Assembly (NCBI GenBank): GCA_014687725.1
Contig: GCA_014687725.1_4094.1
Reading direction: 5' to 3' (one strand)
Length of the DNA stretch: 64,000 nucleotides
From: a phage
The notes under the pieces were generated by a model. The model ran no database searches and had not been told where the DNA came from. It was given only the letters and a program-made list of their open reading frames with translations. A program made the position numbers and the translations under genes. Shown here piece by piece: positions 22,409 through 37,144 of this stretch; position 1 is the first letter of the stretch; each line of letters starts with the position of its first letter.

Positions 22409-22412
22409 TATT

Positions 22413-22604
22413 ATGTTGATTTATCAAGGTGATAATATTCGTGTTATGCAGCATCCCTACTTACAAATCTTTGATGTGCAGCAGTATATGGAAGGTGATG
22501 ACCCAAGAACCTATGGTCGTAAGTATGATTACTTCACTGTAAAGCAGTGTAACAATATTAACGAAGTACGACAATTAGTTCAAGAACTTCAAAACAAAGG
22601 TTGA
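22413..22604 (+). CDS. hypothetical protein (63 aa)
   Basis: AAGGA RBS before internal ATG; IYQGD motif shared with previous ORF. Confidence 0.4.
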   Translation: MLIYQGDNIRVMQHPYLQIFDVQQYMEGDDPRTYGRKYDYFTVKQCNNINEVRQLVQELQNKG

Positions 22605-22630
22605 CTTCGGTCAGCCTTTTTTGTTATAAT
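22599..22630 (+). terminator. terminator hairpin GGTTGAC-TTCG-GTCAGCC plus T-run; TTGACT in stem with TATAAT 18 nt downstream (terminator-promoter cassette)
   Basis: Hairpin 22599-22616, T-run 22617-22622, TATAAT 22625-22630; overlaps stop codon at 22602-22604. Confidence 0.7.
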
Positions 22631-22658
22631 TCTCTTAATAAATTAGAGGATTTTAATT

Positions 22659-23099
22659 ATGTATGTATATCGTTTTGAACTTAAATTTAGTTACATTGAA
22701 CCTAACTTAGATCCTGCACGAACTGTAGGTCCGTTTGCACGGTATTCAACCAGATACAGTACTAAAAATGGATTTGACCGTTTGCTCATGACTACACCTT
22801 CTCAATTCCAACCTGAACCAACTGAGGATGGGATCTATTCAATCAAAAGTGGATGGGTATTTGGCTGTCAAAGTTTGAAAGATTTGTTCAGATTCTTCAC
22901 TATGGACTTAGGTAAATTGCATCGTGCTGGGTTTGCTATATCTGTATATGAAGTTCCAGACCACCATGTAGACATTGGTCGTAATCAGGTTCAGTACTAT
23001 TGCGGTAGTGCTAAATTAGTTCGTATCATGTCAGTTAAGGAAGCAAAGGATGAGTTCCGACAAAGTAAAAGAGAAACACATGAGGTAATATATGGATAA
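22659..23099 (+). CDS. hypothetical protein (146 aa)
   Basis: ORF downstream of cassette. Confidence 0.55.
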   Translation: MYVYRFELKFSYIEPNLDPARTVGPFARYSTRYSTKNGFDRLLMTTPSQFQPEPTEDGIYSIKSGWVFGCQSLKDLFRFFTMDLGKLHRAGFAISVYEVPDHHVDIGRNQVQYYCGSAKLVRIMSVKEAKDEFRQSKRETHEVIYG

Positions 23100-23436
23100 A
23101 ACTCAAATAGAATTAAAGAAATTTGTTTCATTCTATCTTCCTGATGACCCACGTAATTCACAAAAAGATATTGAATATTATAATATCCTATCTAAACAGT
23201 TAATGAGAAAGTTTCAACAGTGTTTAACTATATTCAATACAGATGGAAGACGTAGATACCGAATCGTTTCAATGAATGATGAAAACGCAAATTTCTTTGA
23301 TTACGATGTGGTTTTTAGAGCATATAATGATGATCGTATAAAATTAAATTATGATCAAATTATACTTGACCTGAATGTTATATGTGTTATAATCACTCAC
23401 GTAGCCGAACTTAATGGTTTTAAAGAATGGTATTGA
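23092..23436 (+). CDS. hypothetical protein (114 aa)
   Basis: Overlapping start. Confidence 0.5.
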   Translation: MDKTQIELKKFVSFYLPDDPRNSQKDIEYYNILSKQLMRKFQQCLTIFNTDGRRRYRIVSMNDENANFFDYDVVFRAYNDDRIKLNYDQIILDLNVICVIITHVAELNGFKEWY

Positions 23437-23450
23437 ATAAAGGATAACAT

Positions 23451-23717
23451 ATGAAGCTTAAATTACAATATAATGGATTTACTTTACGTAATGATACTGA
23501 ATTTATTAATCGTTCTCCTGGTGCTGAACTGTTTTTACGAGAGATGAACATTCCTTTCATCATTACTACAGTGGGCGACCGTGAAGTTCTACAATACGCA
23601 GAGCATCCGATCATTGATGTTCCTTGGTACTCTGAGCATATGTACATGGATATGGCACGTCGCTACAACTGTAAGTTCGTAGTTGAAGGTGATAAAATTA
23701 CAGTCGAATTTAAATAA
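23451..23717 (+). CDS. hypothetical protein (88 aa)
   Basis: AAGGA RBS. Confidence 0.5.
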   Translation: MKLKLQYNGFTLRNDTEFINRSPGAELFLREMNIPFIITTVGDREVLQYAEHPIIDVPWYSEHMYMDMARRYNCKFVVEGDKITVEFK

Positions 23718-23728
23718 GGTAAATTAAA

Positions 23729-24022
23729 ATGATCAGTACTTCAGTTAATGAAAGCATCGTCGCTGACGTAGAAATGGTTAAAGAATGTGCAGATGAAACT
23801 CTTCGTGATATGTACATTAATGATTTAATTACTGAATACGGTAGTCGTGGTGTACACGAATTTATTCGTTTAAGTGGAGAGTTGATGAAAAATCGAATTC
23901 GTATGAAGCTTAACGTACATCCAAAAGCATGGGCATTTACATTAAAATACGCAGAAGATATTGTTAATTTACGTCGAACTGAAGCATATGAACGTTTACA
24001 CAATGGTATGTTAGATAAATGA
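23729..24022 (+). CDS. hypothetical protein (97 aa)
   Basis: ORF in cluster. Confidence 0.5.
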   Translation: MISTSVNESIVADVEMVKECADETLRDMYINDLITEYGSRGVHEFIRLSGELMKNRIRMKLNVHPKAWAFTLKYAEDIVNLRRTEAYERLHNGMLDK

Positions 24023-24031
24023 TTGTAAAAT

Positions 24032-24058
24032 AGGAATTCTTAAATGAATTCCTTTTTG
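24032..24058 (+). terminator. rho-independent terminator
   Basis: Hairpin AGGAATTC-TTAAAT-GAATTCCT followed by TTTTT. Confidence 0.65.
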
Positions 24059-24074
24059 TTTATAAGGTATTGTA

Positions 24075-24194
24075 ATGAAATATATAGTACTTGTACTGAT
24101 ATTATTCAGTACTGTTGTAAGTGCTAAACAAAAAGAATATGTTAAATGTATAAATTATGAAGAGAAATATGTTGAAACATATAAAAAAGTATAA
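24075..24194 (+). CDS. hypothetical small secreted peptide (39 aa)
   Basis: MKYIVLVLILFSTVVSA signal-like N-terminus; below 60-aa track cutoff. Confidence 0.35.
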   Translation: MKYIVLVLILFSTVVSAKQKEYVKCINYEEKYVETYKKV

Positions 24195-24302
24195 TTAAAA
24201 ACGTTTCGATTACTAACAGAGCAACAATCATTGTACTTAAAAATGGGTTAATTATGCTATATAAACCACACGTTAAATGTGAAATTATTAATTGAGGAAA
24301 TT

Positions 24303-24875
24303 ATGAATCGTAAAGGTCGTTTTAAAGTATCAAAAAAGAACAAAAGTTCTAGGTTTAAACCTATTGTTTTAACAGTTAAATCTAACAAAGAATTAACTGC
24401 ACTTAGTAAAAAGATAATTTCATCTAAGATTGAAGTATCATACGTAAATTCATTAAAATATATGAATGTCAAACCACTGGACCAACTCATTTCACTTATA
24501 TTTGAACGTAATGATTTTGAGATATCAGTAGATGATTATAGAGCCTATAATGCTGGTTTCATTAATGTTACTTGTAATAAAAAACTAACTGAGTTGGAAA
24601 ATTTGTCATGTATAATAAATCTAGATAAAGGTGTTGTGAAGTACCATTTTGTACATTTCACTAATATCAATAATGGAATGGGTGTACAATCCAGACCTAT
24701 AGTACCTACATGTGATGTTACTAAATTAGCAAAGCTCAATGATGAAGAATATTTTCAAGAAAGTATTGTGACTGAGCATTTAGATGATATAATAGCTACT
24801 TACAAAGAGTGCATATGGGTTTTGAATGCTATAAAGCCTAAATTGTGTTTAATGAATATTGTTCGTGATTTATGA
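24303..24875 (+). CDS. hypothetical protein (190 aa)
   Basis: GAGG RBS before ATG 24303; track ORF starts GTG 24279. Confidence 0.5.
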   Translation: MNRKGRFKVSKKNKSSRFKPIVLTVKSNKELTALSKKIISSKIEVSYVNSLKYMNVKPLDQLISLIFERNDFEISVDDYRAYNAGFINVTCNKKLTELENLSCIINLDKGVVKYHFVHFTNINNGMGVQSRPIVPTCDVTKLAKLNDEEYFQESIVTEHLDDIIATYKECIWVLNAIKPKLCLMNIVRDL

Positions 24876-24888
24876 ATGGGGAATCGTA

Positions 24889-25332
24889 ATGAGTTGGGTA
24901 AATGTTAATAGTATTGAACTTAACGAACAAGATATTTTTGCATTTGTAAATTTAACCAATAATACAGTACTAAAAGGGCGTTTGTTCAGTGCGAGTGATG
25001 GATATAAATGGATCTCTTTGATGGATGATAGTGGTGTGATTTATAATGTAATGCAATTACCCCAATGGGTATATAGTAACACTGCTGACGATGTTCTTGC
25101 CGCAGTTATGCGTGAGTTTGAAAAACTCCCAGGTGGTGATATCAAAAACAAAGTTTTTAATGCAGAACGTAAAAATTATACAGCACAGCAATTGGAATCC
25201 CTTGCCATTGCTGCTTATCAAGCTGCTATTAAGAAGCCAGAGTGCGTTATTCTTAAGTATGTACCAGACTTAAAACTTACGTTGGAAGACATGGATGCAT
25301 TCATTTTTACATCTGAACTTGATCAGTACTAA
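24889..25332 (+). CDS. hypothetical protein (147 aa)
   Basis: Internal ATG of track ORF 24859-25332. Confidence 0.5.
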   Translation: MSWVNVNSIELNEQDIFAFVNLTNNTVLKGRLFSASDGYKWISLMDDSGVIYNVMQLPQWVYSNTADDVLAAVMREFEKLPGGDIKNKVFNAERKNYTAQQLESLAIAAYQAAIKKPECVILKYVPDLKLTLEDMDAFIFTSELDQY

Positions 25333-25447
25333 TTTAACTTTGGGACAACCATTCTTATTATGATATAATGTTTTATGTCATTCGATATAAATGACAACGG
25401 AACTATAAATATTATAGTAAAATTTATCTCTTATAGGAGTTATAAAA

Positions 25448-25831
25448 ATGGTTGATAAATGGAATAAGAAAGATCCATCACATGATGTTGATATTTCTGG
25501 TCTAGACAATGCACATAAGCACAAGTATCTAGATTCACTAGGTCTTCTAAAACCAGACCAAAGTCTTGCACATGATCGTCCATCCCGTGAAAAAGCATTT
25601 AGCCTAGAATCACTAGGTCATGAGCTTAATCGTGTGTTTGAGGATCACCCAATCTATGTACGTGATATTATCGAGAAACTTAAAGTAACTCCTAAAGAGC
25701 ACTTTAAAGCAACAGTACACTCTGCATTCCGTGCATTGCATGATTCTCTCAAGAAAACTCACAATCTTCGTAAAATTCATGATGAAATCGTGAATGCAAT
25801 CGAAAGTGAAAAACATAAGTTCAAGAAGTAA
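25448..25831 (+). CDS. hypothetical protein (127 aa), shares Y-x-x-SLGLL motif with 26077 ORF
   Basis: HKYLDSLGLLKPDQ motif; AGGAG RBS. Confidence 0.55.
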   Translation: MVDKWNKKDPSHDVDISGLDNAHKHKYLDSLGLLKPDQSLAHDRPSREKAFSLESLGHELNRVFEDHPIYVRDIIEKLKVTPKEHFKATVHSAFRALHDSLKKTHNLRKIHDEIVNAIESEKHKFKK

Positions 25832-25838
25832 TAAAAAG

Positions 25839-25871
25839 GGGTTGACTAAGGTCAGCCCTTTGTTGTATCAT
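25839..25871 (+). terminator. terminator-promoter cassette variant (GGGTTGAC-TAAG-GTCAGCCC)
   Basis: Hairpin 25839-25858, T-rich tail, TATCAT 25866-25871. Confidence 0.6.
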
Positions 25872-25900
25872 AACTTCTCAATATAACTGAGGTATCATAT

Positions 25901-26014
25901 ATGCAAGGTTTGAAATTTGTAGTTGCTGCACTCATCGCCGCAGTACTGGTTGGTGGTGTATTCTATGTAGTGGATCAAAAAGTAAATCCACCTGCACAAG
26001 AACAATCTAAGTAA
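25901..26014 (+). CDS. hypothetical small membrane protein (37 aa)
   Basis: MQGLKFVVAALIAAVLVGGVFYVV hydrophobic; between two terminators; below track cutoff. Confidence 0.35.
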   Translation: MQGLKFVVAALIAAVLVGGVFYVVDQKVNPPAQEQSK

Positions 26015-26022
26015 CAAAATAA

Positions 26023-26053
26023 GGTTGACTTCGGTCAGCCTTTTCTTTATACT
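26023..26053 (+). terminator. terminator-promoter cassette (GGTTGAC-TTCG-GTCAGCC)
   Basis: Hairpin 26023-26040, T-run, TATACT 26048-26053. Confidence 0.65.
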
Positions 26054-26076
26054 ATAAATATAGACATAGAGAAAAA

Positions 26077-27630
26077 ATGAAATCTATGGAGAGAAATCAA
26101 ATGCCAAGTAATTTTACTGATAAAAATGGTGGTAACATGGCTGGTCACTCTGATAAATGGAGTGAACGCAACCGCCGTCCAAATAGTTATCAAGCAGGTC
26201 AAGGTTCACGTGGGTCACGTAATCAAGGAACTGGTCTAGCTGGTAAAGCAAACGCAGAAGCAGGTGAAGTTAAGAGTACTGAGAACATGACTGAGCTAGA
26301 AAAGCTACGTTATGTTAATTCATTGGGACTTCTTAATGCTACACAAAAACAACGCCTAGCTGATATGGAACGTGAAGAAAAAGAAAAGTCTTCTCCTGCG
26401 AAAGAAGAACCAAAACAAGAAGCACCAAAGGCGGTTAACCCTGTCAAAGAATTGTCTGATAAGTTAGGTAAGATTTTTGCTAATAAACCACAACTTATCC
26501 AAGGTATTGTGAAAGAATTGCAATCTGTACCTAAAGAAGAATTAAAAGTCAAAGCACAAGCTGTACTTGATGCAATGAGTGGAAATACCAGTACTGAACC
26601 AACTGAAGTATTCAGTACTATAATGCGTGCACTTGAAGGTAAACCACAGGGTGACGAGACTGCACAAGAGGAAGTAAGTCTTGAAAGCGTACTTAAAACA
26701 TTTGATAGTATTGGTAAAGAAGACCGTGCTAATGCTCAACAAGTTAAGAATGTACTAGCTAAGTTAGAAAACCGTCTGGAAGGTAAAGACGATAAGATTA
26801 AATTAGTATCTGATGCAGTTAACGATGCACTTAAATCTTACGTACAAGGTGAAAAGAGTCGTTTTGTAACTGCAATGGATGCTGCATTCAATACTATGAA
26901 AAAGTATGAAGCTGATCATGGTGAGAAGGTTACACGAGATGGTTATCTGATGCGTGATGATGAAGAAGGTGCAGTTGACCAGAAAGATGCTGAAACATCT
27001 CATGATGATTTACCTGATACTGTTGATATGGATGGTTACATTCATCGTCCAGAAATGGGAGAGTTTGGTTCTGACAAAGAAGGATTTGAACATGCAATGG
27101 CAGTGTACAAAGCTCTCGTGGACAATCCAGATTATGCCAACCGATTTGTAGATGAGTTTGATAGTGCATGGAACAACTACAAAGACAAAGGTTATGACTT
27201 CCCTGCTGAGGCAGCATTCTTTGAACTTGGTAAACTATTAGCTAAACATGGAATTGATGTAGGTTCTAAAGATGGTACTGATACTGATGGCATGGAAGCA
27301 GAATTGGCTAAAGATCGTGAAATGAACGACAACTCCATTCATGAACTCCAAAAGCTAATGATGTGGATATCCGATATTGGTAAAAAAGCTGGTGCTGATA
27401 ATAAGAGTATCAACAAAAACATTAGTTGGATTAAAAGTAATGTTGGTAAAAATGCTCGTAAACTACAAAAAGCATGGACTGATTTAGTAAATGGTGCTGA
27501 TGATGTTGACATTGAATCACCTGAAGCATACGAATATGCATTAACTACTCTTGATAATTCCTTTAAAGATTACGATAACGGTAACGTAACTCATTGGGAA
27601 AAGGACATCATGAGCAAATACGGTAAATGA
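26077..27630 (+). CDS. hypothetical protein (517 aa), hydrophilic, acidic/lysine-rich; paralogous N-region to 25448 ORF
   Basis: LRYVNSLGLLNATQKQ motif; long ORF flanked by terminators. Confidence 0.65.
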   Translation: MKSMERNQMPSNFTDKNGGNMAGHSDKWSERNRRPNSYQAGQGSRGSRNQGTGLAGKANAEAGEVKSTENMTELEKLRYVNSLGLLNATQKQRLADMEREEKEKSSPAKEEPKQEAPKAVNPVKELSDKLGKIFANKPQLIQGIVKELQSVPKEELKVKAQAVLDAMSGNTSTEPTEVFSTIMRALEGKPQGDETAQEEVSLESVLKTFDSIGKEDRANAQQVKNVLAKLENRLEGKDDKIKLVSDAVNDALKSYVQGEKSRFVTAMDAAFNTMKKYEADHGEKVTRDGYLMRDDEEGAVDQKDAETSHDDLPDTVDMDGYIHRPEMGEFGSDKEGFEHAMAVYKALVDNPDYANRFVDEFDSAWNNYKDKGYDFPAEAAFFELGKLLAKHGIDVGSKDGTDTDGMEAELAKDREMNDNSIHELQKLMMWISDIGKKAGADNKSINKNISWIKSNVGKNARKLQKAWTDLVNGADDVDIESPEAYEYALTTLDNSFKDYDNGNVTHWEKDIMSKYGK

Positions 27631-27640
27631 TAAAACTAAA

Positions 27641-27665
27641 GGTTGACTTCGGTCAGCCTTTTTTT
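27641..27665 (+). terminator. rho-independent terminator (GGTTGAC-TTCG-GTCAGCC plus T7)
   Basis: Hairpin 27641-27658, T-run 27659-27665. Confidence 0.75.
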
Positions 27666-27700
27666 GTAAATACAAAAGAGGAATTAAGAAGAGGATTGCA

Positions 27701-27952
27701 ATGAAAAAATATATTATATTTGGAATTGTATTATTTTCCAGTACTGCTTATGGTGCAGATTATCATTGCTCCGTAGCAAGGCAGGATTTCAGAAATGGGG
27801 AGTTCTATACTACCTCATACACAAAAGGAATAATACACGACACCGACAGAACTATTGGATTTAATGCGTTTGACAACAAAGATTCATATACTTCAGGTAT
27901 ACTATCTGAGCGTAAGACTGATGTTATGGGAATAGAAAAAGAGTTCCGGTGA
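27701..27952 (+). CDS. hypothetical secreted protein (83 aa)
   Basis: Signal-like MKKYIIFGIVLFSSTAYGA. Confidence 0.5.
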   Translation: MKKYIIFGIVLFSSTAYGADYHCSVARQDFRNGEFYTTSYTKGIIHDTDRTIGFNAFDNKDSYTSGILSERKTDVMGIEKEFR

Positions 27953-27962
27953 TTCAGTAGCA

Positions 27963-28262
27963 ATGTGCAATGACATTGAAAGTACTAAAACAATTTATTA
28001 TAATAATGAACGTAACTATCGTTTTCATAATTTAACCACAAATAAAAGTTTACTATTTTACAATTGTAAAGAAGTAATACTCCCATCAGACAATAGCTGT
28101 ACTCCAACTAATCAACCCCCAGCACAATGTAATACTCCCTCTGAACCTGATAAAAATAAAAAAGACAAAAAACCTTTAAAAGATAAAAAGAAAGATAAAA
28201 AACCTAATCCGTTTAAAAATAATAAACCAGCACAACCCGATATGACGTGTAAAATAAAATAA
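27963..28262 (+). CDS. hypothetical protein (99 aa), Cys-containing with Lys/Asp-rich tail
   Basis: ORF in cluster. Confidence 0.4.
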   Translation: MCNDIESTKTIYYNNERNYRFHNLTTNKSLLFYNCKEVILPSDNSCTPTNQPPAQCNTPSEPDKNKKDKKPLKDKKKDKKPNPFKNNKPAQPDMTCKIK

Positions 28263-28271
28263 GGATATATA

Positions 28272-28691
28272 ATGAAAAAGATTTTTTTAAGTATTATTTT
28301 AGTACTTTTTAGTTTTAATGTATATGCAGCAGATGCTAAACAGGTTGCAAATACAGTAAAAGATGTTATAGTAGATAATGCTCCTACATTAGAGGAAATT
28401 GGGGTAAAAACTTGTGATATAGTAATATATAATTTAGTTAATGATGAACGAGTTATGTTGAATACGTATGAACAAGTAGTCCCATTGGTTGAATCTGGTG
28501 ATGCTTTTAGCTTTACATATAAAGTTAAATTAACAGGAGGGGTTGAAGTTAATCTTGACATTGATACCGCTTCAGTACTAAAAGATAAACTAGGATATGT
28601 GTTCAATCGTATTCGTGAAGAAGGTCATCTTAAGTATGTTTATGAAAGTAAAATACTAAAACGTGCAATAGTTATAGAAAACTGTAAATGA
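28272..28691 (+). CDS. hypothetical secreted protein (139 aa)
   Basis: Signal-like MKKIFLSIILVLFSFNVYAAD. Confidence 0.55.
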   Translation: MKKIFLSIILVLFSFNVYAADAKQVANTVKDVIVDNAPTLEEIGVKTCDIVIYNLVNDERVMLNTYEQVVPLVESGDAFSFTYKVKLTGGVEVNLDIDTASVLKDKLGYVFNRIREEGHLKYVYESKILKRAIVIENCK

Positions 28692-28698
28692 TAATAAA

Positions 28699-28732
28699 AG
28701 GGTTGACTTCGGTCAGCCTTTTTTGTTATGAT
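28699..28732 (+). terminator. terminator-promoter cassette
   Basis: Hairpin 28701-28718, T-run 28719-28724, TATGAT 28727-28732. Confidence 0.65.
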
Positions 28733-28760
28733 GTTGGTATTAACTACAGAGGATAAAGTA

Positions 28761-29402
28761 ATGACTAAGCAAGAAATATTCAAAACTTTAATTGACATTT
28801 TGCGTCCATCAAAAACTCGTTGTGCGATGGAGTTTGATATTCCTTATGCTGAACGCGTAATCTTTCCACAAGTTAAAGCTGCTGGACTTACTTTGCTTGG
28901 AATGGGGATGTACTCTGTAGTAGTTGAACATAAAAACTATCCTGGACGTGCATTTAAAGTAACCACTTCACGCTGGGATGGTTTTCGTGCTTATGCAAAG
29001 TACTGCATTGAAAACGCAGGAACCAAGTTTCTTCCAGTGATCTACAGTGCAAACGAACAAGGAAACTTTGGATGGTATGAGATGGACAAGTACTATCCTA
29101 TAATTAAACAAAAAAATAATTATGATGACTTTGTTAGTACTAAAATTGGAGATTTGTATTCGTATGCACATGCTGGTCAGTACGCAACTTCAGTGAATGA
29201 TATGCGTGGAAATTCTGAAGAGATTGCTATTGCAACGGTCGCTGCTAACATCATGAAAGAGTTTCACGGGCGTTTTGTACCAGACATTCATTCAAGTAAT
29301 GTGATGATGGATAAAGATGGGAATGTATTCATTACTGATCCTCTTTCGTGTGATGTGCGTAGAGAAATACCAATTACTGAAGAAGATCCAGTTTTTTATT
29401 GA
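28761..29402 (+). CDS. protein-kinase-like fold protein (213 aa), putative
   Basis: Gly-rich LLGMGMYSVV, Lys in RAFKV, catalytic-loop-like DIHSSNVMMD, then ITDP; AGGA RBS. Confidence 0.5.
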   Translation: MTKQEIFKTLIDILRPSKTRCAMEFDIPYAERVIFPQVKAAGLTLLGMGMYSVVVEHKNYPGRAFKVTTSRWDGFRAYAKYCIENAGTKFLPVIYSANEQGNFGWYEMDKYYPIIKQKNNYDDFVSTKIGDLYSYAHAGQYATSVNDMRGNSEEIAIATVAANIMKEFHGRFVPDIHSSNVMMDKDGNVFITDPLSCDVRREIPITEEDPVFY

Positions 29403-29463
29403 CAGAACTGATGTTATGATGTATTCTTAATAAACCATAAAAATTGCGGTAAAGGATAAAATC

Positions 29464-29745
29464 ATGCGTTCATTTGAAAACTTAATAGGTAAGCATCTTT
29501 TATCTGAAATTGATGCAGACGTTAAAGAATTATCCAAATCAAAAAGTTACATTCATTTGGATGAACTGTTTATTAAGTACGGTGAGATTGGTTTTAAGTC
29601 ATTATTTGTTTTTACTATGAAAGTACATAGTTTAAAGTACTTCGATTTGAGTGCTAAAGATGGTGAACCGAATCTATATTACATGTATTACCTTAAGAAC
29701 AAAGATGAAGCTAATACATTACTCTCTGAATATATATTGGGGTAA
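29464..29745 (+). CDS. hypothetical protein (93 aa)
   Basis: AAGGA RBS. Confidence 0.5.
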   Translation: MRSFENLIGKHLLSEIDADVKELSKSKSYIHLDELFIKYGEIGFKSLFVFTMKVHSLKYFDLSAKDGEPNLYYMYYLKNKDEANTLLSEYILG

Positions 29746-29747
29746 AA

Positions 29748-30086
29748 ATGGAACAATATTTTGAATTAATAAACAAAGTATCATTTTATGTAGTATCTTT
29801 GGTTTGGGTGTATTATATGTTTTGCTACATTATTGCATTCTTCCGATACACTACTTTATATGAACGTATCTACTATGATGCCCCAATTTCATTCTTGATG
29901 TTTTGTGCATGTACGTGGGGAATATTAGAAGTACTGATATGTGGGTATAGTACTGATGAATTAAATCTGGTATCGGTCTTGACTGGGTTTTCATTTGTTG
30001 TTATGATAGCTGCCGTTCCAGTATGGTTGTTCTTTGTACTAGTTCATCGCATTGATATATGGCGTTCTAATATCCCTGAAAAGTAA
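29748..30086 (+). CDS. small membrane protein family (W/F-Y-F-K ... R-x-N-x-P tail), member
   Basis: Two or three hydrophobic helices; C-terminal RIDIWRSNIPEK. Confidence 0.55.
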   Translation: MEQYFELINKVSFYVVSLVWVYYMFCYIIAFFRYTTLYERIYYDAPISFLMFCACTWGILEVLICGYSTDELNLVSVLTGFSFVVMIAAVPVWLFFVLVHRIDIWRSNIPEK

Positions 30087-30095
30087 GGATTGGTA

Positions 30096-30437
30096 ATGAT
30101 TTATTACACTAACATGTTTGCCTATGCTGTTGCTTGCATTTACATTGTTTACTTCTTATTCGGTGGAGTACTGTGCTTCTTTAAGTACAAAACGTTGTTC
30201 AACCGAATGTACCCAAATCATCCAATTGTAGTTGTACTTTTGATTCTTTCAGTTTCTCAAATAATCGTTGAAACTACAATGGGTATCAGTAGTGTACATT
30301 ATAGTTTTGGTACTATAGTAATTATTACTATGCTTATTGCATACATTTTAGTACTTGGATATGGTATCTTTGGTAATATTGGTATGAAAATGTATCATCG
30401 AATTAAAACATTACGTGATAATCTACCGGAGCGTTGA
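30096..30437 (+). CDS. small membrane protein family member (113 aa)
   Basis: FKYKTLFNRMYP motif, C-terminal RIKTLRDNLPER. Confidence 0.55.
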   Translation: MIYYTNMFAYAVACIYIVYFLFGGVLCFFKYKTLFNRMYPNHPIVVVLLILSVSQIIVETTMGISSVHYSFGTIVIITMLIAYILVLGYGIFGNIGMKMYHRIKTLRDNLPER

Positions 30438-30438
30438 T

Positions 30439-30783
30439 ATGTATAATTTGAACCTAATCTCATATATTATAACAACACTGTTTACATTCTATGCCTTTGT
30501 TGGTATAATCCTACTGTACTTTAAATTTTATAAAGTGTTTAACCGTTTCTATCCTTCAATGGAGAATGAGTTTTTCTTTGTATTGTACGTAGGTTACACA
30601 TTAATGGCTACATGTTTCACTGTAGCCGATGGTGTCATCGGCATTAAAACTGATTCCCCAAATGGTAGTACGCTGGTTGCATTTATTCTTACCGGATTCC
30701 TTGCAACTTATATTGCCTTCATTACAACATGGTCAGTGGTTGAATTTCTCTTGCGACTACGAAAGAATATGCCGAATCGATAG
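30439..30783 (+). CDS. small membrane protein family member (114 aa)
   Basis: FKFYKVFNRFYP motif, C-terminal LRLRKNMPNR. Confidence 0.55.
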   Translation: MYNLNLISYIITTLFTFYAFVGIILLYFKFYKVFNRFYPSMENEFFFVLYVGYTLMATCFTVADGVIGIKTDSPNGSTLVAFILTGFLATYIAFITTWSVVEFLLRLRKNMPNR

Positions 30784-30792
30784 GAGACATAT

Positions 30793-31047
30793 ATGTTTGC
30801 ATTGCGTAACAAAAACACTAAAGAATTATTATGTATTGATACCGTATGGGATTGTGCGGGTTCAACTACAGTTCTTGAAGAAGGAACTGGATATTGCGTG
30901 TTTGTTGTACATGATAGGAATGAACTCGAATTATTACTTGCTGAGTTCAATGCTGGTGGTAATCCTAACAGTACTGAATACCCTGAGATTATCAATCCAG
31001 CACCTCCAGGTTCATATGAAATCCTACCACTATGGGTGTTGAAATAA
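30793..31047 (+). CDS. hypothetical protein (84 aa)
   Basis: Strong AGGAG RBS. Confidence 0.5.
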   Translation: MFALRNKNTKELLCIDTVWDCAGSTTVLEEGTGYCVFVVHDRNELELLLAEFNAGGNPNSTEYPEIINPAPPGSYEILPLWVLK

Positions 31048-31427
31048 TGCGACAAATGTACAAAGTAACCGAGCTAAACAAGCGTCTGGTTAAACAATCT
31101 ATGTTTGAGGATAAAGAGTCTTACTATAACTTTAAACGTGCTGTAGAGGCTGCTATCCACATTCAGAAGCTTAAAGAACGTGGTTGTATTATTCTGGAAA
31201 ATGGTTCGGAAGTTGTAACGGATGACTTTAGTGTAGCGTTTGATGTTTCACCTGATGGGACGCTATCAATGCCCCGCTTAGGAACTGGAAACATGACTGT
31301 TTGGGTTGGCTTCACTATGGGGAATGTACCTGGTACTGTGTACGTAGATGCTGCGGAATTGAAAGACAGTTTCAAAAACTTATCTTATCTTGAACCACAA
31401 TACGCACATGAAATGAATTTATTTTGA
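31047..31427 (+). CDS. hypothetical protein (126 aa)
   Basis: Internal ATG of track ORF 31032-31427. Confidence 0.5.
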   Translation: MRQMYKVTELNKRLVKQSMFEDKESYYNFKRAVEAAIHIQKLKERGCIILENGSEVVTDDFSVAFDVSPDGTLSMPRLGTGNMTVWVGFTMGNVPGTVYVDAAELKDSFKNLSYLEPQYAHEMNLF

Positions 31428-31428
31428 G

Positions 31429-31487
31429 TTGACAAACACATTCAGTACTGTATAATGCTTATCAAGGGGGATGAACTTCTCATCCCT
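31429..31487 (+). promoter_or_regulatory. promoter TTGACA-N16-TATAAT plus leader stem-loop (PeSL-like)
   Basis: TTGACA 31429-31434, TATAAT 31451-31456, hairpin GGGATGA-ACTTC-TCATCCC 31468-31486. Confidence 0.6.
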
Positions 31488-31504
31488 ACAATCGAGGAAC
31501 TACC

Positions 31505-32059
31505 ATGATTACTTTTAAGAAAACTGCTAACCACATCCATGAAATCTACATTAACGGTCATAAAGCTGGCCTTCTTCGTTTACTCGCCCATCATCCTAAT
31601 GCTACCGTATCTGATAATGAACCTAAAGATTGGCGTGTCTTTTTCTTTGGAAAGTACAGTGATTTTCAAGTATCAAACCTGAAGAACATTCGTTCAGTAT
31701 GCACGTTAACTGAAATTAAAGAAAAGTTAGCACAAGCCTTGAAAACTAATCCAGATGGTGTTCTTCCACCTGATAACTTTGTAGAGAAAGGTTATGCCTT
31801 AGCTCATTTCAAAGATGGTACTATTCAATCTATCAGTACTGAATATGAATATCATTGGACTGAGTACTTCACTTATGGTTCGAGTAATACATTGATGGAT
31901 TCACGTAGTAAATTGGAAGAAGTACTGACTCGTATGAATGAACGCGAGCGTCAGTTATATGACAAACCAGAAATGTGGAGTTCAACTTACATTGACCGTA
32001 TTGACTATGTTATTATGACTCCAATCTTTGACACTGCTTACTATGATTCTTTGAAATAA
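31505..32059 (+). CDS. hypothetical protein (184 aa)
   Basis: ORF downstream of promoter. Confidence 0.55.
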   Translation: MITFKKTANHIHEIYINGHKAGLLRLLAHHPNATVSDNEPKDWRVFFFGKYSDFQVSNLKNIRSVCTLTEIKEKLAQALKTNPDGVLPPDNFVEKGYALAHFKDGTIQSISTEYEYHWTEYFTYGSSNTLMDSRSKLEEVLTRMNERERQLYDKPEMWSSTYIDRIDYVIMTPIFDTAYYDSLK

Positions 32060-32070
32060 GGATAACTTAT

Positions 32071-32247
32071 ATGAAACTACGTACTCGTAATCGACTGATG
32101 GATGCACTGTACCATGAACAGCTTTCACTGAATGAAGTGAAGCGTCAGTTAATGTACACATATCAGTTTCCCGCTCGCATTGCAAAACAACGTGCTAAAG
32201 AATTGCTGAAAGAAGCAATCGAGTACTGGGAATCTGATTCGTACTAA
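32071..32247 (+). CDS. hypothetical protein (58 aa)
   Basis: AAGGA RBS; below track cutoff. Confidence 0.4.
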   Translation: MKLRTRNRLMDALYHEQLSLNEVKRQLMYTYQFPARIAKQRAKELLKEAIEYWESDSY

Positions 32248-32251
32248 CATT

Positions 32252-32623
32252 ATGAATATAGATTTGAAAGGTGCAACCCGAACTGTTATCCTCATTGGGG
32301 AATATGCTATCAAGATTCCAACCTTTAAAAGTTGGAAGCTATTCTTAACAGGGATGATAGCTAACCTCAATGAACGTTCGTGGATGCAGTACTCCAATCG
32401 TAGTGATAGTAGTATCTGCCCTACGTTGTGGTCATCATGTACTGGACTAGTAACTGTACAGAAACGTTGTAAGCCAGTACAACATAGGGGTTTATTTTGG
32501 GTGGAGTTGTGTGCTTTAGCATTGAATTCAGAGTTAAGTACTGACTTCTTCTATTCAGATGCGAAGCCAGAAAACTTTGGGTATCTGGGTGGTAAGTTAG
32601 TTAAACTTGATTATGGAGATTAA
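32252..32623 (+). CDS. hypothetical protein (123 aa)
   Basis: ORF in cluster. Confidence 0.45.
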   Translation: MNIDLKGATRTVILIGEYAIKIPTFKSWKLFLTGMIANLNERSWMQYSNRSDSSICPTLWSSCTGLVTVQKRCKPVQHRGLFWVELCALALNSELSTDFFYSDAKPENFGYLGGKLVKLDYGD

Positions 32624-32624
32624 T

Positions 32625-32894
32625 ATGTACGCACTGTATAATAAAGAAAAGAAACGATTTGCTAAGGTTGAAATTTCGATTGATACATTTGATATGTTGG
32701 AGTACTGTATTGTAACGGACCTATATGCTAACTTGTATTACGTTCTTGATGACGTATCAGTACTGCAACGATTGCTTGAGAATTCCAAAAGTCAATGCCA
32801 AGGCATCCATGATGGTTCATCTTATGAAACACCTGAGTGTTCCTACGGCTATCTGGACGGGTATGAGATTGTGAAGTTGGGGATCATTGAATAA
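32625..32894 (+). CDS. hypothetical protein (89 aa)
   Basis: GGAG RBS before internal ATG. Confidence 0.5.
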   Translation: MYALYNKEKKRFAKVEISIDTFDMLEYCIVTDLYANLYYVLDDVSVLQRLLENSKSQCQGIHDGSSYETPECSYGYLDGYEIVKLGIIE

Positions 32895-32898
32895 AGAA

Positions 32899-32933
32899 AA
32901 GGGTTGACTTCGGTCAGCCCTTTTTGCTATAAT
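32899..32933 (+). terminator. terminator-promoter cassette (GGGTTGAC-TTCG-GTCAGCCC, T5, GC-TATAAT)
   Basis: Hairpin 32901-32920, T-run 32921-32925, TATAAT 32928-32933. Confidence 0.75.
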
Positions 32934-32961
32934 TATTTCATCAAGACGAGAGGATGAATAC

Positions 32962-33477
32962 ATGACACGCATTAACTTAGTACACGTTAAAGAACTTGCT
33001 GACCAACATCTGATGGCTGAATATCGTGAACTCCCACGTGTATTTGGTGCTGTACAAAAACACGTTCAAGCACGTAAGCGTGTACGTGATTTCAAAATTA
33101 ACAGTACTTATCTGTTAGGTTCAGGTCATGTGACATTCTTTTACGACAAGTTGCTGTACTTACAGAAGCGTCATATCGATATTGTTAACGAATGTTTGCG
33201 TCGTGGTATGAAGATTCAAAACACTGAAGTAAACGACATTAGCGGCTTCCCTGCTGAGTTTTGTAATGACTACGTACCAACGGAGTCAGAGATTAAAATG
33301 TCTCGTGATCGTTTGATTGAGAAGCTCCAGATGAAGCCTACGTGGTATAAGTTTACTGATGTTGAATGTCCACAGTACGTTAAAGATATGCAGAACGTAA
33401 GTAGTAAGAACGAATCTAGTACTGATATGTTCGACGAAATTGAAGAACAAATCAAAGATGAAATGAATAATTATTAA
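32962..33477 (+). CDS. denV: pyrimidine dimer DNA glycosylase / AP lyase (T4 endonuclease V family) with C-terminal extension
   Basis: N-terminus [31 protein letters not shown]...RVRDFKI...[10 protein letters not shown] closely matches recalled T4 endonuclease V; 171 aa. Confidence 0.9.
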
Positions 33478-33515
33478 AGGAAAGGGTTGACTTCGGTTAC
33501 ACAAAGGAACATAAC

Positions 33516-33710
33516 ATGTTATTAGTATATTCAAAGCGTTTCTGGATTTCTTTTATTGTACTATCGCTAATCGGCTTCGGTTTGAGTATACTCTTTTCGT
33601 GGGATGAATTGGGTACATGGTATTATGAAGTCCCGTGGTACATGAAGATAGCTCCTTGTTATGCGGCATTGTTCGTGTCATTCCTTATTGTTGTCTTCAG
33701 CGAGGATTAG
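33516..33710 (+). CDS. hypothetical small membrane protein (64 aa)
   Basis: Two hydrophobic helices. Confidence 0.4.
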   Translation: MLLVYSKRFWISFIVLSLIGFGLSILFSWDELGTWYYEVPWYMKIAPCYAALFVSFLIVVFSED

Positions 33711-33816
33711 TTGATGTAGTATGTGCTACACCAAAGTATTTGGATATTTTAGATATAAACATTGACACCTGTTCTATCTTTCTGTATTATGTACATCACC
33801 AAATGAGGAATACAAC

Positions 33817-34176
33817 ATGGCATCTTTAAGTGAAATCGCAGAATACAACCCACTAACAATCTCAACAATTCAACGTACAAAAACTTTTTATTTCCGTCCT
33901 GCTGATGGATGGAAACGTGGAATGAATGGTGACTATCGAGTACTGGAAGATTCACTAATCGAGCGTATCAACTCTGAACTACAGAAGTATGAAGGTGTTA
34001 AAGTTGTGCGTTCAACTTCTCGTTATTTTGAGTACTACATTGAGTCTTCAACTGTAAATGAAAACTCATCATTCTCGGTGGACAACACTGATATTCTTCG
34101 TAATGCTGTTGGTCTTTTATGCAGGATTGCAGAAGAAATTGGATTAACTATCACCACAATGAGTGAGTTAGAATAA
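33817..34176 (+). CDS. hypothetical protein (119 aa)
   Basis: ORF followed by terminator. Confidence 0.55.
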   Translation: MASLSEIAEYNPLTISTIQRTKTFYFRPADGWKRGMNGDYRVLEDSLIERINSELQKYEGVKVVRSTSRYFEYYIESSTVNENSSFSVDNTDILRNAVGLLCRIAEEIGLTITTMSELE

Positions 34177-34180
34177 CATA

Positions 34181-34215
34181 AAGGGTTGACTTCGGTCAGC
34201 CCTTTTTGCTATAAT
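34181..34215 (+). terminator. terminator-promoter cassette
   Basis: Hairpin 34183-34202, T-run, TATAAT 34210-34215. Confidence 0.75.
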
Positions 34216-34241
34216 TATTTTATCGAAACGAGAGGTAATAC

Positions 34242-34475
34242 ATGAAACTATCTTTTATACGTTTAGCAGAATTCTTCGGTACTGATATTATTACTTTACA
34301 ACAAATTGCAGACAATACTTCATTAAGTACACAAGAAGTACTTGACTTGGATGTAATTAAGTGCGATAATACTTCCATCGATTACAAAGAAGGTCTTGTC
34401 GAAAAAGATAAGATTCAGGCTAAGATTAATGGTGCTGGACGGGTTCAGTACTGGAAAGGAGTTTTAAGTAAATGA
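34242..34475 (+). CDS. hypothetical protein (77 aa)
   Basis: ORF downstream of cassette. Confidence 0.45.
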   Translation: MKLSFIRLAEFFGTDIITLQQIADNTSLSTQEVLDLDVIKCDNTSIDYKEGLVEKDKIQAKINGAGRVQYWKGVLSK

Positions 34476-35896
34476 AAATTTATATTGATAAATTTGGAAC
34501 GACTTATGAATATTATGATTATACACATTATAATTCATATATACAAAAAAATCATAACCAAATGTCACCTTATTTGCATTATGAAGATTTAATGGAACTA
34601 TTCTCTAAAAATTTAAATTCTATTAAATTTATTGGTTTTAAAGATCCAACATGGAAAAGTTCACATACGCATGTGTATTTTGAATATGATAATATGGTAT
34701 ATGAACATTCAATATCAAATATCAAAACAAAATTCGCTGATCATAGATATAAACCAGGTAGAATATGTAGAACCTTGGAACAAATTATAAATGAGTCCAT
34801 TTATATATTTAAAAAATATGATAAATTTAATTTTCATAGCATTGCATCATTTAATGGAGCACGAACTATAATCAATTATACAATTGAAGGACGTGAAAGA
34901 ATATTTTCTATATCATTCAATTCATTAATAAAAGATTTTAAAGGGGGAAGCCCATGTTATTCATATGAAGAAGTAGAAAATATATCTATAAAAAAATTAA
35001 ATGAACATAATTTGAGATTTATCTCAATTAGTAAATTTAATGGTGTGTTTAGTTGTATTGAATATGAACAACCAACTCAGAAAGGAAAAAAATATGTTGA
35101 TTTTAATATATTAATCTATAATGAATGGAAAGGTAATCTACCGAATATAACTAATGAAGAGGTGAATAATCGAATTTCAGAAAAAATGAAAAAACTAAAT
35201 ATCAATGAATATGAAATTGTAGAATATAACAGTACTAGGAGCATGGTTGAATATACAGTTGATGATATTTCATATACAACTAGTTACGATAAGATTATGC
35301 ATCCAACTTGGAAAGGTAATCCAAGATATACAAAAGAAAGAATAATAAAATTGTCGAAAAAATATTGCAAGGGTAAAAAATTTCAATTTAATAAAATAAT
35401 TGGTAATGTTAAAGGAATTAATACTATCATTGAATTAGAACTTGAAAATGGTATGTTTATATATCCAAAATTTATACAATTAAAAGGAGGTTCTGACTTT
35501 AATACATCCACTGATGGTAAGATTTTAACAGAAATAATTTATCCTTTGTTCGACAATTATATCACACAAAAACGTTTTGAAAATTGTAGAAATCCTGAAA
35601 CTGGATACTTGTTGCCATATGATTTGTATGTTCCAGAATTTAATTTATTATTAGAAAAAGATGGAGTGCAACATTACAATCCAACAGCATATTTTAATAA
35701 AACATATGAATCATATTTGAAATTGAGAGAGAGAGATGAATTTAAAAACAAATATGCCATATCAAATGGTTATAATTTCATGCGAATAGCAGATTATGAA
35801 GATCATGAAAAAATATTGAAATCTTTCCTTAAACTCATTGAAGAGAATCCAGGAAAGCAAATTGTGCAGATCTATGGTGAAGTACAAATTATCTAA
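34472..35896 (+). CDS. putative PD-(D/E)xK (Vsr-like) endonuclease with N-terminal repeated modules; homing-endonuclease-like
   Basis: C-terminal YDLYVPEFNLLLEKDGVQHY ... RDEFKNKYAISNGYNFMRIADYE; N-terminal roughly 50-aa repeats; Lys/Asn-rich. Confidence 0.5.
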   Translation: MKIYIDKFGTTYEYYDYTHYNSYIQKNHNQMSPYLHYEDLMELFSKNLNSIKFIGFKDPTWKSSHTHVYFEYDNMVYEHSISNIKTKFADHRYKPGRICRTLEQIINESIYIFKKYDKFNFHSIASFNGARTIINYTIEGRERIFSISFNSLIKDFKGGSPCYSYEEVENISIKKLNEHNLRFISISKFNGVFSCIEYEQPTQKGKKYVDFNILIYNEWKGNLPNITNEEVNNRISEKMKKLNINEYEIVEYNSTRSMVEYTVDDISYTTSYDKIMHPTWKGNPRYTKERIIKLSKKYCKGKKFQFNKIIGNVKGINTIIELELENGMFIYPKFIQLKGGSDFNTSTDGKILTEIIYPLFDNYITQKRFENCRNPETGYLLPYDLYVPEFNLLLEKDGVQHYNPTAYFNKTYESYLKLRERDEFKNKYAISNGYNFMRIADYEDHEKILKSFLKLIEENPGKQIVQIYGEVQII

Positions 35897-35901
35897 AACA
35901 A

Positions 35902-35936
35902 AAGGGTTGACTTCGGTCGGCCCTTTTTGCTATAAT
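35902..35936 (+). terminator. terminator-promoter cassette (variant GTCGGCCC arm)
   Basis: Hairpin 35904-35923, T-run, TATAAT 35931-35936. Confidence 0.7.
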
Positions 35937-36802: not shown

Positions 36803-37144
36803 ATGCTTGAGTTTTTTAATTCAGATACAATGCTTGGTATCACGCTAATTTACATGTTTGTATTTTTGTGTTATCATTCAATTGTAATTAGTCTGTGGTA
36901 TTTTAAAAGGAAAATTGTTTTTAAATTGTATTCGGATGATAATGTAGTCTTAGTTTTATATAGTATTATCCAAGGTGGGTTTATTTTATTTGGTGTGATG
37001 ACATATGCGATTTACATGTTACAAATTGATAATACACCACACATTACACAATATCTTGTGTTTTCAGGTCTAATCGTGTGGTTGTTGGTGTGTAGCATGT
37101 ACTTTATTATTAAAGCTCGTGATAGAATTAAAGGGGATTTCTAA
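36803..37144 (+). CDS. small membrane protein family B, member 1
   Basis: WYFKRKIVFKLY motif, hydrophobic helices, C-terminal RDRIKGDF. Confidence 0.55.
   Translation: MLEFFNSDTMLGITLIYMFVFLCYHSIVISLWYFKRKIVFKLYSDDNVVLVLYSIIQGGFILFGVMTYAIYMLQIDNTPHITQYLVFSGLIVWLLVCSMYFIIKARDRIKGDF

Follow-up and report, generated by a model that had tools for sequence, protein, structure and literature searches.

A repeated putative terminator-promoter element of probable PeSL type in the early region of an Asteriusvirus jumbo coliphage

The early region of an Asteriusvirus jumbo coliphage contains a short repeat that is likely, at a probability of about 0.7 and judging from its sequence, to be a compact bifunctional regulatory cassette of the promoter-early stem-loop (PeSL) type, operating in a jumbo phage that depends on the host RNA polymerase. 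PeSLs have been described in the T4-like phages RB49/phi1, T4/PST and KVP40/nt-1 (Arbiol et al., 2010, PMC2839356; Comeau et al., 2014, PMC4122927), and our literature search found no published PeSL description for the 121Q/RaK2 jumbo group; we regard the kind as already known and its example in a 121Q/RaK2-type jumbo phage as apparently new. The window, that is, the whole stretch of 64,000 nucleotides that was analyzed (GCA_014687725.1, contig GCA_014687725.1_4094.1), belongs to the 121Q/PBECO4 group, the 121Q/RaK2-type giant E. coli phages. Its early region runs on the + strand for about 40 kb around the elements and is abundant in perfect sigma-70 promoters. The 121Q genome holds about nine copies of the element, eight of which fall inside the same 13-kb stretch. 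For PA5oct, a related phage, reliance on the host RNA polymerase is reported in the published abstract.

The element reads (A)AAGG(G)TTGAC-TTCG-GTCRGCC(C)TTTT and is present as eight + strand copies of about 36 bp each between 22599 and 35905 (Table 1). Its core, GGTTGAC-NNNN-GTCRGCC, lies at 22599, 25840 (with a TAAG loop), 26023, 27641, 28701, 32902, 34184 and 35905 (where the 3' arm is GTCGGCC). Scanning both strands for this core gave 18 matches against 0.5 expected from shuffles, two of the 18 being an unrelated hairpin at 14140, and a 28-mer allowing at most three mismatches was matched six times against an expectation of 0. An earlier note on this DNA had recognized the repeat, including the decayed half copy at 33483, and had proposed a hairpin with a U-run; all eight copies do fold in this way, with stems of 9-12 bp, a UUCG loop in seven (UAAG at 25840) and a following run of 3-7 U. 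The coordinates in that note designate the right copies but are 1-4 nt off because they were counted from the A-tract, and the copy at 22599 reads GTTATAAT rather than GCTATAAT. Every copy lies on the coding strand, 1-10 nt from a stop codon. Predicted RNA hairpin energies range from -12.4 to -17.1 kcal/mol in the sense direction and from -7.0 to -12.1 kcal/mol in antisense; U.G pairs account for the antisense deficit of about 5 kcal/mol. In five of the eight copies (family D2) the likeness extends for 74 nt and takes in the 5' UTR and ribosome-binding site as far as the ATG. The decayed copy (AGGGTTGACTTCGGTTAC) still has its 5' arm and loop; its 3' arm and U-run are gone, and it folds at -1.7 kcal/mol.

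As in intrinsic terminators, a GC-rich hairpin and a U-rich tract are found 3' of a gene on the transcribed strand, and a terminator scan of the window lists 22596, 26021 and 27638. These hairpins are already annotated, as terminators only, in the ARNOLD-based annotations of G17 and CBB and in the UE-S1 record. The element shares with canonical C(UUCG)G intrinsic terminators the GC-rich stem, extra-stable loop, 3' U-run, stem-extending A-tract and post-stop position. It differs from them in its fixed 5' arm, TTGAC, which retains a U.G wobble where C-G would be stronger, and in carrying an extended -10 at a fixed distance. To our knowledge, ordinary terminators have neither the frozen arm nor the fixed-distance extended -10.

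Early genes of lytic coliphages use extended -10 (TGn) sigma-70 promoters with a UP-like A-tract. The element has in common with these promoters TTGACT, a 17-18 bp spacer, TGnTATAAT and an A-rich tract, located upstream of the -35 at about -46 to -38; however, its spacer consists of the terminator loop, 3' arm and U-run and is not free sequence. TTGACT stands 17-18 nt ahead of a -10 hexamer in seven of the eight copies, five of them with a TGn extended -10, and the promoter scan scored these seven at no less than 10/12 against TTGACA-N17-TATAAT. The arrangement is TTGACT-18-TATAAT plus TG at 22601, 32904, 34186 and 35907, TTGACT-18-TATGAT plus TG at 28703, TTGACT-18-TATCAT at 25842 and TTGACT-17-TATACT at 26025. 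The hexamer of the copy at 27641 (TAAATA, 3/6) is weak, as the earlier note had it, and this copy is absent from the promoter-like sites scoring at least 10/12. A promoter spacer of 18 nt is suboptimal. Promoter function need not extend to all copies, since 27641 is without a credible -10 and the -10 hexamers at 25840 and 26023 are moderate. The window also has a huge excess of a second palindrome, CAGTACTG, which sits within the spacers of other promoters.

Among 53 orthologous copies from seven Asteriusvirus genomes, GGTTGACT is unchanged in all 53, and 98.6% of the pair cells are paired. The only variable sites are three positions in the loop and two purines of the 3' arm (U-A to U.G). Opposite both U's of TTGAC stands either A or G, and the -35 arm remains invariant while its pairing partner switches from A to G and back. 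A change of T to C opposite G would strengthen the stem, yet the 5' arm is frozen, which supports constraint on the -35. Covariation is seen at the pair that adjoins the -35 on the outside (GC 18, AU 12, GU 7). A broader set of 56 IMG/VR matches was chosen by the 18-nt hairpin alone; the best -10 lies at spacer 17 or 18 in 54 of these, matches at least 4/6 in 52 and is preceded by TG in 45, although part of this -10 conservation reflects common descent and gene conversion, the copies being paralogues and orthologues. A CAT start context follows the -10 at the expected distance, and similarity ends at the promoter edges, with unrelated flanks. The wobble stem that keeps TTGAC accounts for these 56 matches, compared with 14 for the perfectly paired GGCTGAC stem, just two of which are followed by a T-run. 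The 18-nt core with the extended -10 occurs in RaK2-like jumbo phages, T4-like Vibrio/Aeromonas phages, enterobacterial myoviruses of about 150 kb and Brochothrix phage A9, an unrelated phage of a Gram-positive host that carries the same composite. The element sites are absent from the RpoD-like promoters that the authors of CBB listed from their MEME search.

Table 1. Positions of the repeated elements, the decayed half copy and the cassettes between element pairs; hairpin energies and promoter parts are predictions.
Feature	Position	Strand	Hairpin	Promoter parts	Neighbors and remarks
Element 1	22595..22630	+	A-tract, hairpin 22596-22619 (UUCG), U-run; -13.4 kcal/mol	-35 TTGACT 22601-22606; TGT; -10 TATAAT 22625-22630	Stop of ORF 22359-22604 before; ATG 22659 after
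Element 2	25836..25871	+	UAAG loop; -17.0 kcal/mol	-35 25842-25847; spacer 18; -10 TATCAT 25866-25871	37-aa ORF downstream
Element 3	26019..26053	+	-12.4 kcal/mol	-35 26025-26030; spacer 17; -10 TATACT 26048-26053	517-aa virion protein gene (26077-27630) downstream
Element 4	27637..27672	+	Good terminator hairpin, 7 U; -13.3 kcal/mol	-35 27643-27648 present; weak -10 TAAATA 27667-27672	
Element 5	28697..28732	+	-14.4 kcal/mol	-35 28703-28708; spacer 18; TGT; -10 TATGAT 28727-28732	Protein kinase gene downstream
Element 6	32898..32933	+	-17.1 kcal/mol	-35 32904-32909; spacer 18; TGC; -10 TATAAT 32928-32933	denV (32962-33477) downstream; long-subfamily member, conservation through 5' UTR to ATG (32893-32966)
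Decayed half element	33483..33500	+	AGGGTTGACTTCGG (5' arm + loop); no hairpin	No usable -10	Family D3; ribosome-binding site of the following gene (ATG 33516) at the former U-run position
Element 7	34180..34215	+	-16.6 kcal/mol	-35 34186-34191; spacer 18; TGC; -10 TATAAT 34210-34215	Left edge of cassette 34242-35896
Element 8	35901..35936	+	Two U.G pairs (GTCGGCC); -16.3 kcal/mol	-35 35907-35912; spacer 18; TGC; -10 TATAAT 35931-35936	Right edge of cassette 34242-35896
Cassette A	25858..26022	+			Elements 2-3; one 37-aa ORF; absent from UE-S1, one chimeric element there; three genes in this interval in vB_Ec-M-J
Cassette B	27659..28700	+			Elements 4-5; ORFs 27701-27952, 27963-28262, 28272-28691; absent from UE-S1, crossover within element
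Cassette C	34202..35904	+			Elements 7-8; two ORFs (77-aa and 474-aa homing endonuclease); absent from UE-S1; contents differ in 121Q, G17, JP4 and vB_Ec-M-J

The elements also appear to double as recombination junctions for gene cassettes, a role that the earlier note overlooked along with the prior description of such elements. Three cassettes that have an element on either side in the window are missing from UE-S1; there, a single chimeric element is present at each site, with the crossover inside the element in all three cases. JP4 has an additional gene whose left border is a half element broken in the loop, and among seven phages compared the left flank switches at the element in six of the eight sites. 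Sites s1 and s5 of vB_Ec-M-J carry an s8-like UTR, and 5' UTRs look homogenized between non-orthologous copies. Homing or HNH endonuclease genes adjoin two element sites, and some of the indels at elements are homing-endonuclease insertions that lie to one side of an element and are not enclosed by two copies. As 36-74 bp are repeated in direct orientation, the element could also serve as a site of homologous exchange; comparison of related phages shows cassettes between two copies gained, lost or replaced, with junctions inside the element. Morons of lambdoid phages are genes with their own promoter and terminator; the present cassettes resemble them as autonomous transcription units added between existing genes, but here the flanking repeat is itself the junction.

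PeSLs and the present element are alike in being intergenic repeats that join a terminator stem-loop to a sigma-70-like early promoter and lead into a Shine-Dalgarno sequence and ATG. Both are clustered in a variable early region crowded with small ORFs of unknown function, and both mark the junctions of insertions, deletions and replacements among close relatives and leave degraded half copies, as seen here in UE-S1, in JP4 and at 33483. A predicted sigma-70-like promoter with an A/T-rich upstream tract is present, as is a predicted stable stem-loop able to terminate or attenuate, whose 5' arm is the -35. In RB49/phi1, the stem-loop overlaps the -35 box in one of five PeSL subclasses, lacZ fusions demonstrated activity both as promoter and as terminator, and neighboring copies recombine to release mini-circles, which can be packaged (PMC2839356). 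The nt-1-type PeSL stem, A3-4 G3 ... C3 T3-4, resembles the present stem, and the identical 18-mer is found in Vibrio phages such as ValKK3 and in a KVP40-sized contig. However, the RB49/phi1 PeSLs vary in stem placement and have poly-G/poly-C stems, whereas the present element is one near-invariant sequence in which every terminator part doubles as a promoter part. PeSLs were described in T4-like myoviruses and this is an Asteriusvirus jumbo phage; as that distinction concerns host range and not mechanism, we treat the element as a PeSL from outside the original phage group.

We propose that in the incoming transcript AAAGGGUUGAC-UUCG-GUCAGCCCUUUUU would fold into a tetraloop hairpin followed by the U-run, and that together these would terminate or attenuate transcription just past the upstream stop codon. 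As DNA, the same bases would form a sigma-70 promoter layout with the A-tract where an UP element would be. The 5' arm and first loop base would provide the -35 (TTGACT), the remaining loop, 3' arm and U-run the 17-18 bp spacer, and the G closing the U-run the TG of the extended -10 (TGnTATAAT). The predicted start point is about 6-7 nt past the -10, and the 5' UTR that follows would be short and include a GAGG ribosome-binding site. The terminator half would keep upstream transcription out of the next promoter, and with the combined layout initiation and termination would be separate for every unit of 1-11 early genes. The interpretation in the earlier note is partly borne out. Its central idea, that one piece of roughly 35 bp ends one gene and starts the next, with the stem supplying the -35, is supported by the comparative evidence and the T4-like precedent. 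Its description of the copies as "insulating single-gene cassettes" is overstated, since only two of the seven intervals fit it; gene numbers from one copy to the next are 8, 1, 1, 3, 11, 3 and 2, and some units also contain other promoters and another hairpin.

The repeats could instead be plain intrinsic terminators, with TTGAC incidental and the -10-like hexamers a product of AT-rich chance or of the repeat's shared descent. Public annotations and the CBB supplement do give terminators only, the copy at 27641 has no real -10, and promoter-like hexamer pairs are no commoner across the AT-rich window than in shuffled sequence (98 found, 103.6 expected). We nonetheless judge this unlikely: TGnTAnnnT recurs at spacer 17/18 in 45-52 of the 56 hairpin-selected matches despite unrelated flanks, the 5' arm is constant although T-to-C would better the stem, the perfect stem without TTGAC is rare and hardly ever in a terminator context, and an unrelated Brochothrix phage, A9, has the same composite. 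A very improbable alternative is that the palindrome is a DNA operator over the -35, by which a dimeric phage or host regulator silences early promoters, the RNA hairpin being irrelevant. In a promoter-like site, the inverted-repeat core is centered on the -35 region, this phage has to shut off its early genes, and the over-representation of CAGTACTG in other promoters' spacers makes palindromic protein sites plausible in this genome. Against an operator, variation is asymmetric, affecting the 3' arm only (A to G or back) and keeping RNA pairing while breaking DNA symmetry; covariation outside the -35 takes the forms GC/AU/GU; a U-run follows every copy, each directly behind a stop codon; and a common regulator is unlikely for a sequence shared by several phage families and a phage of a Gram-positive host.

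It is also improbable that the repeat is mainly mobile or recombinogenic DNA, such as a miniature mobile element, a homing-endonuclease target or a site-specific recombination site, with its regulatory likeness secondary. The cassette presence/absence junctions inside the element, the adjoining homing or HNH endonuclease genes at two sites and the apparently homogenized 5' UTRs of vB_Ec-M-J (s1 and s5, s8-like) would suit such an origin. However, the repeat is without an associated recombinase, transposase or target-site duplications, all copies have a single orientation tied to gene direction, the conserved block ends at promoter/terminator edges and not at repeat ends, and the JP4 HNH insertion is next to the element and leaves it intact. 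In a phage with a T4-like replication/recombination system, short direct repeats can recombine without special machinery.

A further, more speculative reading, to which we give a small chance, is that the 36-bp sequence is a convergent, near-optimal overlay of an intrinsic terminator on a sigma-70/sigma-A promoter, in which terminated polymerase is handed on to re-initiate. Re-initiation by polymerase diffusing on DNA after termination has been seen in vitro (PMC6978380). With the U-run release site inside the next promoter, an RNA polymerase that has just terminated could pass straight to that promoter. If such termination-coupled re-initiation is true, flux along the chain of cassettes would be maintained while each transcript resets.

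The hairpin that recurs along the plus strand of this phage is well supported, by comparison among related phages and by analogy with T4-like phages, as a composite element of about 36 bp that would terminate one transcript and supply the -35 box of the next promoter. Scanning the window for its core, GGTTGAC-NNNN-GTCRGCC, finds eight plus-strand copies, and on both strands together 18 matches are seen where dinucleotide shuffles predict 0.5, two of the 18 being an unrelated hairpin at 14140. A 28-mer proposed in the earlier note gives six matches at up to three mismatches, against an expectation of 0. These shuffle counts rule out a chance origin of the repeats. Every copy starts a few bases from a stop codon and is followed, 40-60 nt on, by a GAGG-type ribosome-binding site and a same-strand ATG. 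The loop is UUCG in seven copies and UAAG in one, and the predicted RNA hairpins range from -12.4 to -17.1 kcal/mol. The earlier note had described the recurring hairpin with its decayed copy, and a stem TTGACT placed at -10 spacing that was weak in one copy; this description is accurate, since the core scan and a promoter consensus scan both match it. An Rfam scan of the window returned four tRNAs only and no RNA family at the element.

Table. Coordinates of repeats, promoters, hairpins and neighboring features in the window
Feature	Position	Strand	Details
Element 1	22599	+	TTGACT-18-TATAAT with TG, at 22601
Element 2	25840	+	-10 TATCAT, at 25842
Element 3	26023	+	-10 TATACT, 17-nt spacer, at 26025
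Element 4	27641	+	weak hexamer TAAATA
Element 5	28701	+	-10 TATGAT with TG, at 28703
Element 6	32902	+	TTGACT-18-TATAAT with TG, at 32904
Decayed ninth copy	33483		AGGGTTGACTTCGG retained; 3' arm and U-run gone
Element 7	34184	+	TTGACT-18-TATAAT with TG, at 34186
Element 8	35905	+	TTGACT-18-TATAAT with TG, at 35907
Perfect promoters	1491, 8363, 10209, 11571, 16515, 16863, 20828, 31429	+	12-of-12 TTGACA-N16/17-TATAAT
Conventional terminator hairpins	3357, 7184, 14140		promoter separate or none
Four tRNA genes	36-300 and 1811-1883	+	Rfam RF00005, 50-70 bits
Second hairpin family	41484, 43919, 46368, 47582, 48391, 49654, 50894, 52114, 53296	-	spans 41465-53296
Run of five ORFs	36803-38478	+	113, 112, 115, 112, 104 aa
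Direct repeat, 120 nt	36812 and 37153		79% identical
Indel relative to G17	32245-32252		288-bp stretch (L001:13269-13557) absent

Read directly from the sequence, the parts of the terminator coincide one-to-one with those of a sigma-70 promoter. The A-tract of the terminator is a UP-like tract, the 5' arm with the first loop base is the -35, TCG with the 7-8 nt 3' arm and 5-6 U's forms the 17-18 bp spacer, and the G closing the U-run is the TG of TGnTATAAT. The IMG/VR query consisted of the 18-nt hairpin and no further sequence, so the matches were not chosen for anything that lies 3' of it. Among the 56 matches, the best -10 lies at a spacer of 17 or 18 in 54, at least four of six positions match TATAAT in 52, and 45 carry the extended -10 TG; a CAT start context is found downstream of the -10, and neither flank is related from match to match. 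Within Asteriusvirus, GGTTGACT, which comprises the 5' arm and first loop base and includes the entire -35, is unchanged in 53 of 53 copies, and the T-to-C change opposite G that would strengthen the stem occurs in none. The perfectly paired GGCTGAC...GTCAGCC, which lacks the -35, serves as a control that is small because it has 14 IMG/VR matches only, mostly in GC-rich coding DNA; a T-run follows two of them and a correctly placed -10 neither. For the full palindrome GGTTGAC...GTCAACC there are five matches, and a -10 accompanies each of them.

The terminator half is traced at the RNA level in an alignment of the window's copies with their orthologues in six relatives, 53 in all. Standard pairing is kept in 98.6% of pair cells, the pair immediately outside the -35 covaries (G-C 18, A-U 12, G-U 7), and the partner of both U's in TTGAC is A or G. 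All stem substitutions fall in the 3' arm and are A-to-G or G-to-A, preserving RNA pairing and breaking DNA symmetry; the 3'-arm G would also abolish a mirror-image TTGAC on the opposite strand. The reverse-strand fold is about 5 kcal/mol weaker than the sense fold because the U.G pairs of the stem become C-A mismatches in the antisense. These hairpins are already annotated as terminators in G17 and UE-S1, and the supplement of the CBB paper lists them as Torf39, Torf515, Torf518, and Torf520; the sites are absent from the 18 RpoD-like promoters of that study. Across the literature on 121Q, PBECO4, RaK2, CBB, and PA5oct, hairpins are given as terminators and promoter overlap goes unmentioned.

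A precedent exists in the promoter-early stem-loop (PeSL) cassettes of T4-like phages, which are repeated intergenic units in which a terminator stem-loop is joined to a sigma-70-like early promoter (PMC2839356, PMC4122927). At their 3' end PeSLs carry a Shine-Dalgarno sequence and ATG; they are enriched in hyperplastic regions, lie at indel junctions, include degraded half copies, and fall into five subclasses, among them stem-loops over the -35 box; their promoter and terminator activities were demonstrated by lacZ fusions (PMC2839356, PMC4122927). Each of these sequence-level features is found in the present element. No PeSL-type element was described in any paper found on the 121Q/RaK2 group. 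The dual role proposed in the earlier note thus gains comparative evidence and the PeSL precedent, its activity being a predicted one, while the notion of single-gene cassettes was overstated, because successive intervals between copies hold 8, 1, 1, 3, 11, 3, and 2 genes. Termination-coupled re-initiation at the element is a speculative addition (PMC6978380).

How the repeats arose and spread can be considered from several angles. Tandem gene duplication is rejected as their source, since the downstream genes, compared at their start codons and first bases, are not paralogues. The minus-strand hairpin family of the window, (A)AAGCCAGTAC-loop-GTACTGGC(TTT), differs here in that the repeat moves with a duplicated gene. 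In its seven fully read copies (41484, 46368, 47582, 48391, 49654, 50894, and 52114) the hairpin is followed by cttatttgtaTTAAATATAgTATAATgaataaaggaggg and ATG, and precedes a tandem paralogous family gene starting MLPFGRM. Borrowing from the host is also rejected: the 18-mer is missing from every E. coli representative, and elsewhere in bacteria it occurs in single copies only, in 50 of 185,579 species genomes (596 Gb) compared with about 17 expected by chance on our own estimate. Since bacteria carry it in single copies only, its repeated use is characteristic of phages. 121Q carries about nine copies, eight of them within this stretch, and blastn places the 36-mer at 6-11 sites in Asteriusvirus genomes, 13 in RaK2, and 11 in CBB. 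The core with extended -10 is also found in KVP40-type Vibrio phages, Aeromonas T4-like phages, and ~150-kb myoviruses of Pectobacterium, Cronobacter, and Enterobacter, and two copies lie in Brochothrix phage A9 (HM242243), which is itself one of the element-bearing metagenomic contigs; GenBank holds no close relative for two others. A9, an SPO1-like phage of a Gram-positive host, has two copies of GGGGTTGACTTCGGTCAGCCCTTTTGTTATTATAAAGGTATAG (L006:3875 and L007:2270), and RaK2 copies (L011, L012) share the stretch GGGTTGACTTCGGTCAGCCCTTTTGTTATTATA with them exactly, by either convergence or transfer. The wide spread as a whole may likewise reflect either transfer from phage to phage or convergence imposed by the tight dual constraints, and near-identity of the element across unrelated phages is a speculative extension of the finding.

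One 121Q copy lies outside the cluster, just beyond the window (L004:1965-2180, about 144.9 kb in 121Q). Downstream of it and of metagenomic RaK2-like copies (L017, L028, L037, and L027) is a conserved leader, CATTGRSAGATA...GCCCAYAGGGTGC...TATC, and not a gene; the next plus-strand ORF in 121Q starts about 180 nt on. The leader has no Rfam match; two possibilities are a small RNA made from the composite promoter and a structured 5' leader.

The element also marks recombination junctions, as seen in targeted alignments. Three blocks that copy pairs bracket here (25840/26023, 27641/28701, and 34184/35905) are absent from UE-S1 (91% identity), and at all three sites UE-S1 runs from the left copy's left flank through one element into the right copy's right flank. 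An extra gene in JP4 has as its left border a half element broken off in the loop. Across seven phages the left flank switches at six of eight element sites with the right side constant, and 5' UTRs of some non-orthologous copies appear homogenised. Not all indels at elements follow the copy-pair pattern, however, as an HNH gene in JP4 and vB_Ec-M-J (a remnant in ELP-22) is inserted between stop codon and element with no second copy. Away from any element, the window lacks a stretch with a homologue of 121Q gene 214 that is present in G17, 121Q, and ELP-22.

At 97-98% identity, the window region matches Escherichia phages BAU.Micro_ELP-22, JP4, 121Q, PBECO4, G17, and other members of Asteriusvirus, a genus of RaK2-like jumbo myoviruses with genomes of about 350-380 kb. 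Its first 40 kb form a plus-strand block of small, mostly unnamed genes with many perfect TTGACA/TATAAT promoters, a T7 gp0.7-like protein kinase gene, denV, and homing endonuclease genes, and are therefore taken as the early region. Reliance on the RNA polymerase of the host is reported for the related phage PA5oct; no usable Asteriusvirus transcriptome was found. None of the eight 12-of-12 promoters overlaps a hairpin, so that, counting the composite elements, the early region has at least two promoter layouts. The ORF run directly downstream of element 8, within which the 120-nt direct repeat falls, probably consists of tandem paralogues. For the palindrome CAGTACTG, dinucleotide shuffles predict 1.06 occurrences in the 64 kb and 50 are seen, spread over genes and intergenic sequence and densest at 59024-62797; AGTACT occurs 217 times. 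CAGTACTG makes up the stems of the minus-strand hairpins and sits in the spacer just 5' of the -10 at perfect promoters 16515, 16863, and 31429, as GTAGTACTG does at 20828; its possible roles include regulator binding, DNA modification or anti-restriction, and signalling recombination.

To our knowledge, regulation in 121Q/RaK2-type jumbo phages, which serve in phage-therapy work, is almost unstudied, and the elements offer a testable transcription-unit map for their early region. Sites labelled "terminator" only are probably also due a promoter label. The finding carries the PeSL idea past T4-like phages and offers synthetic biology a natural 36-bp insulator part that would end one unit and begin the next. 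If true, short regulatory repeats both drive expression and act as swap junctions for small early genes, which would help account for the differences in gene content here among otherwise 97-98% identical phages.
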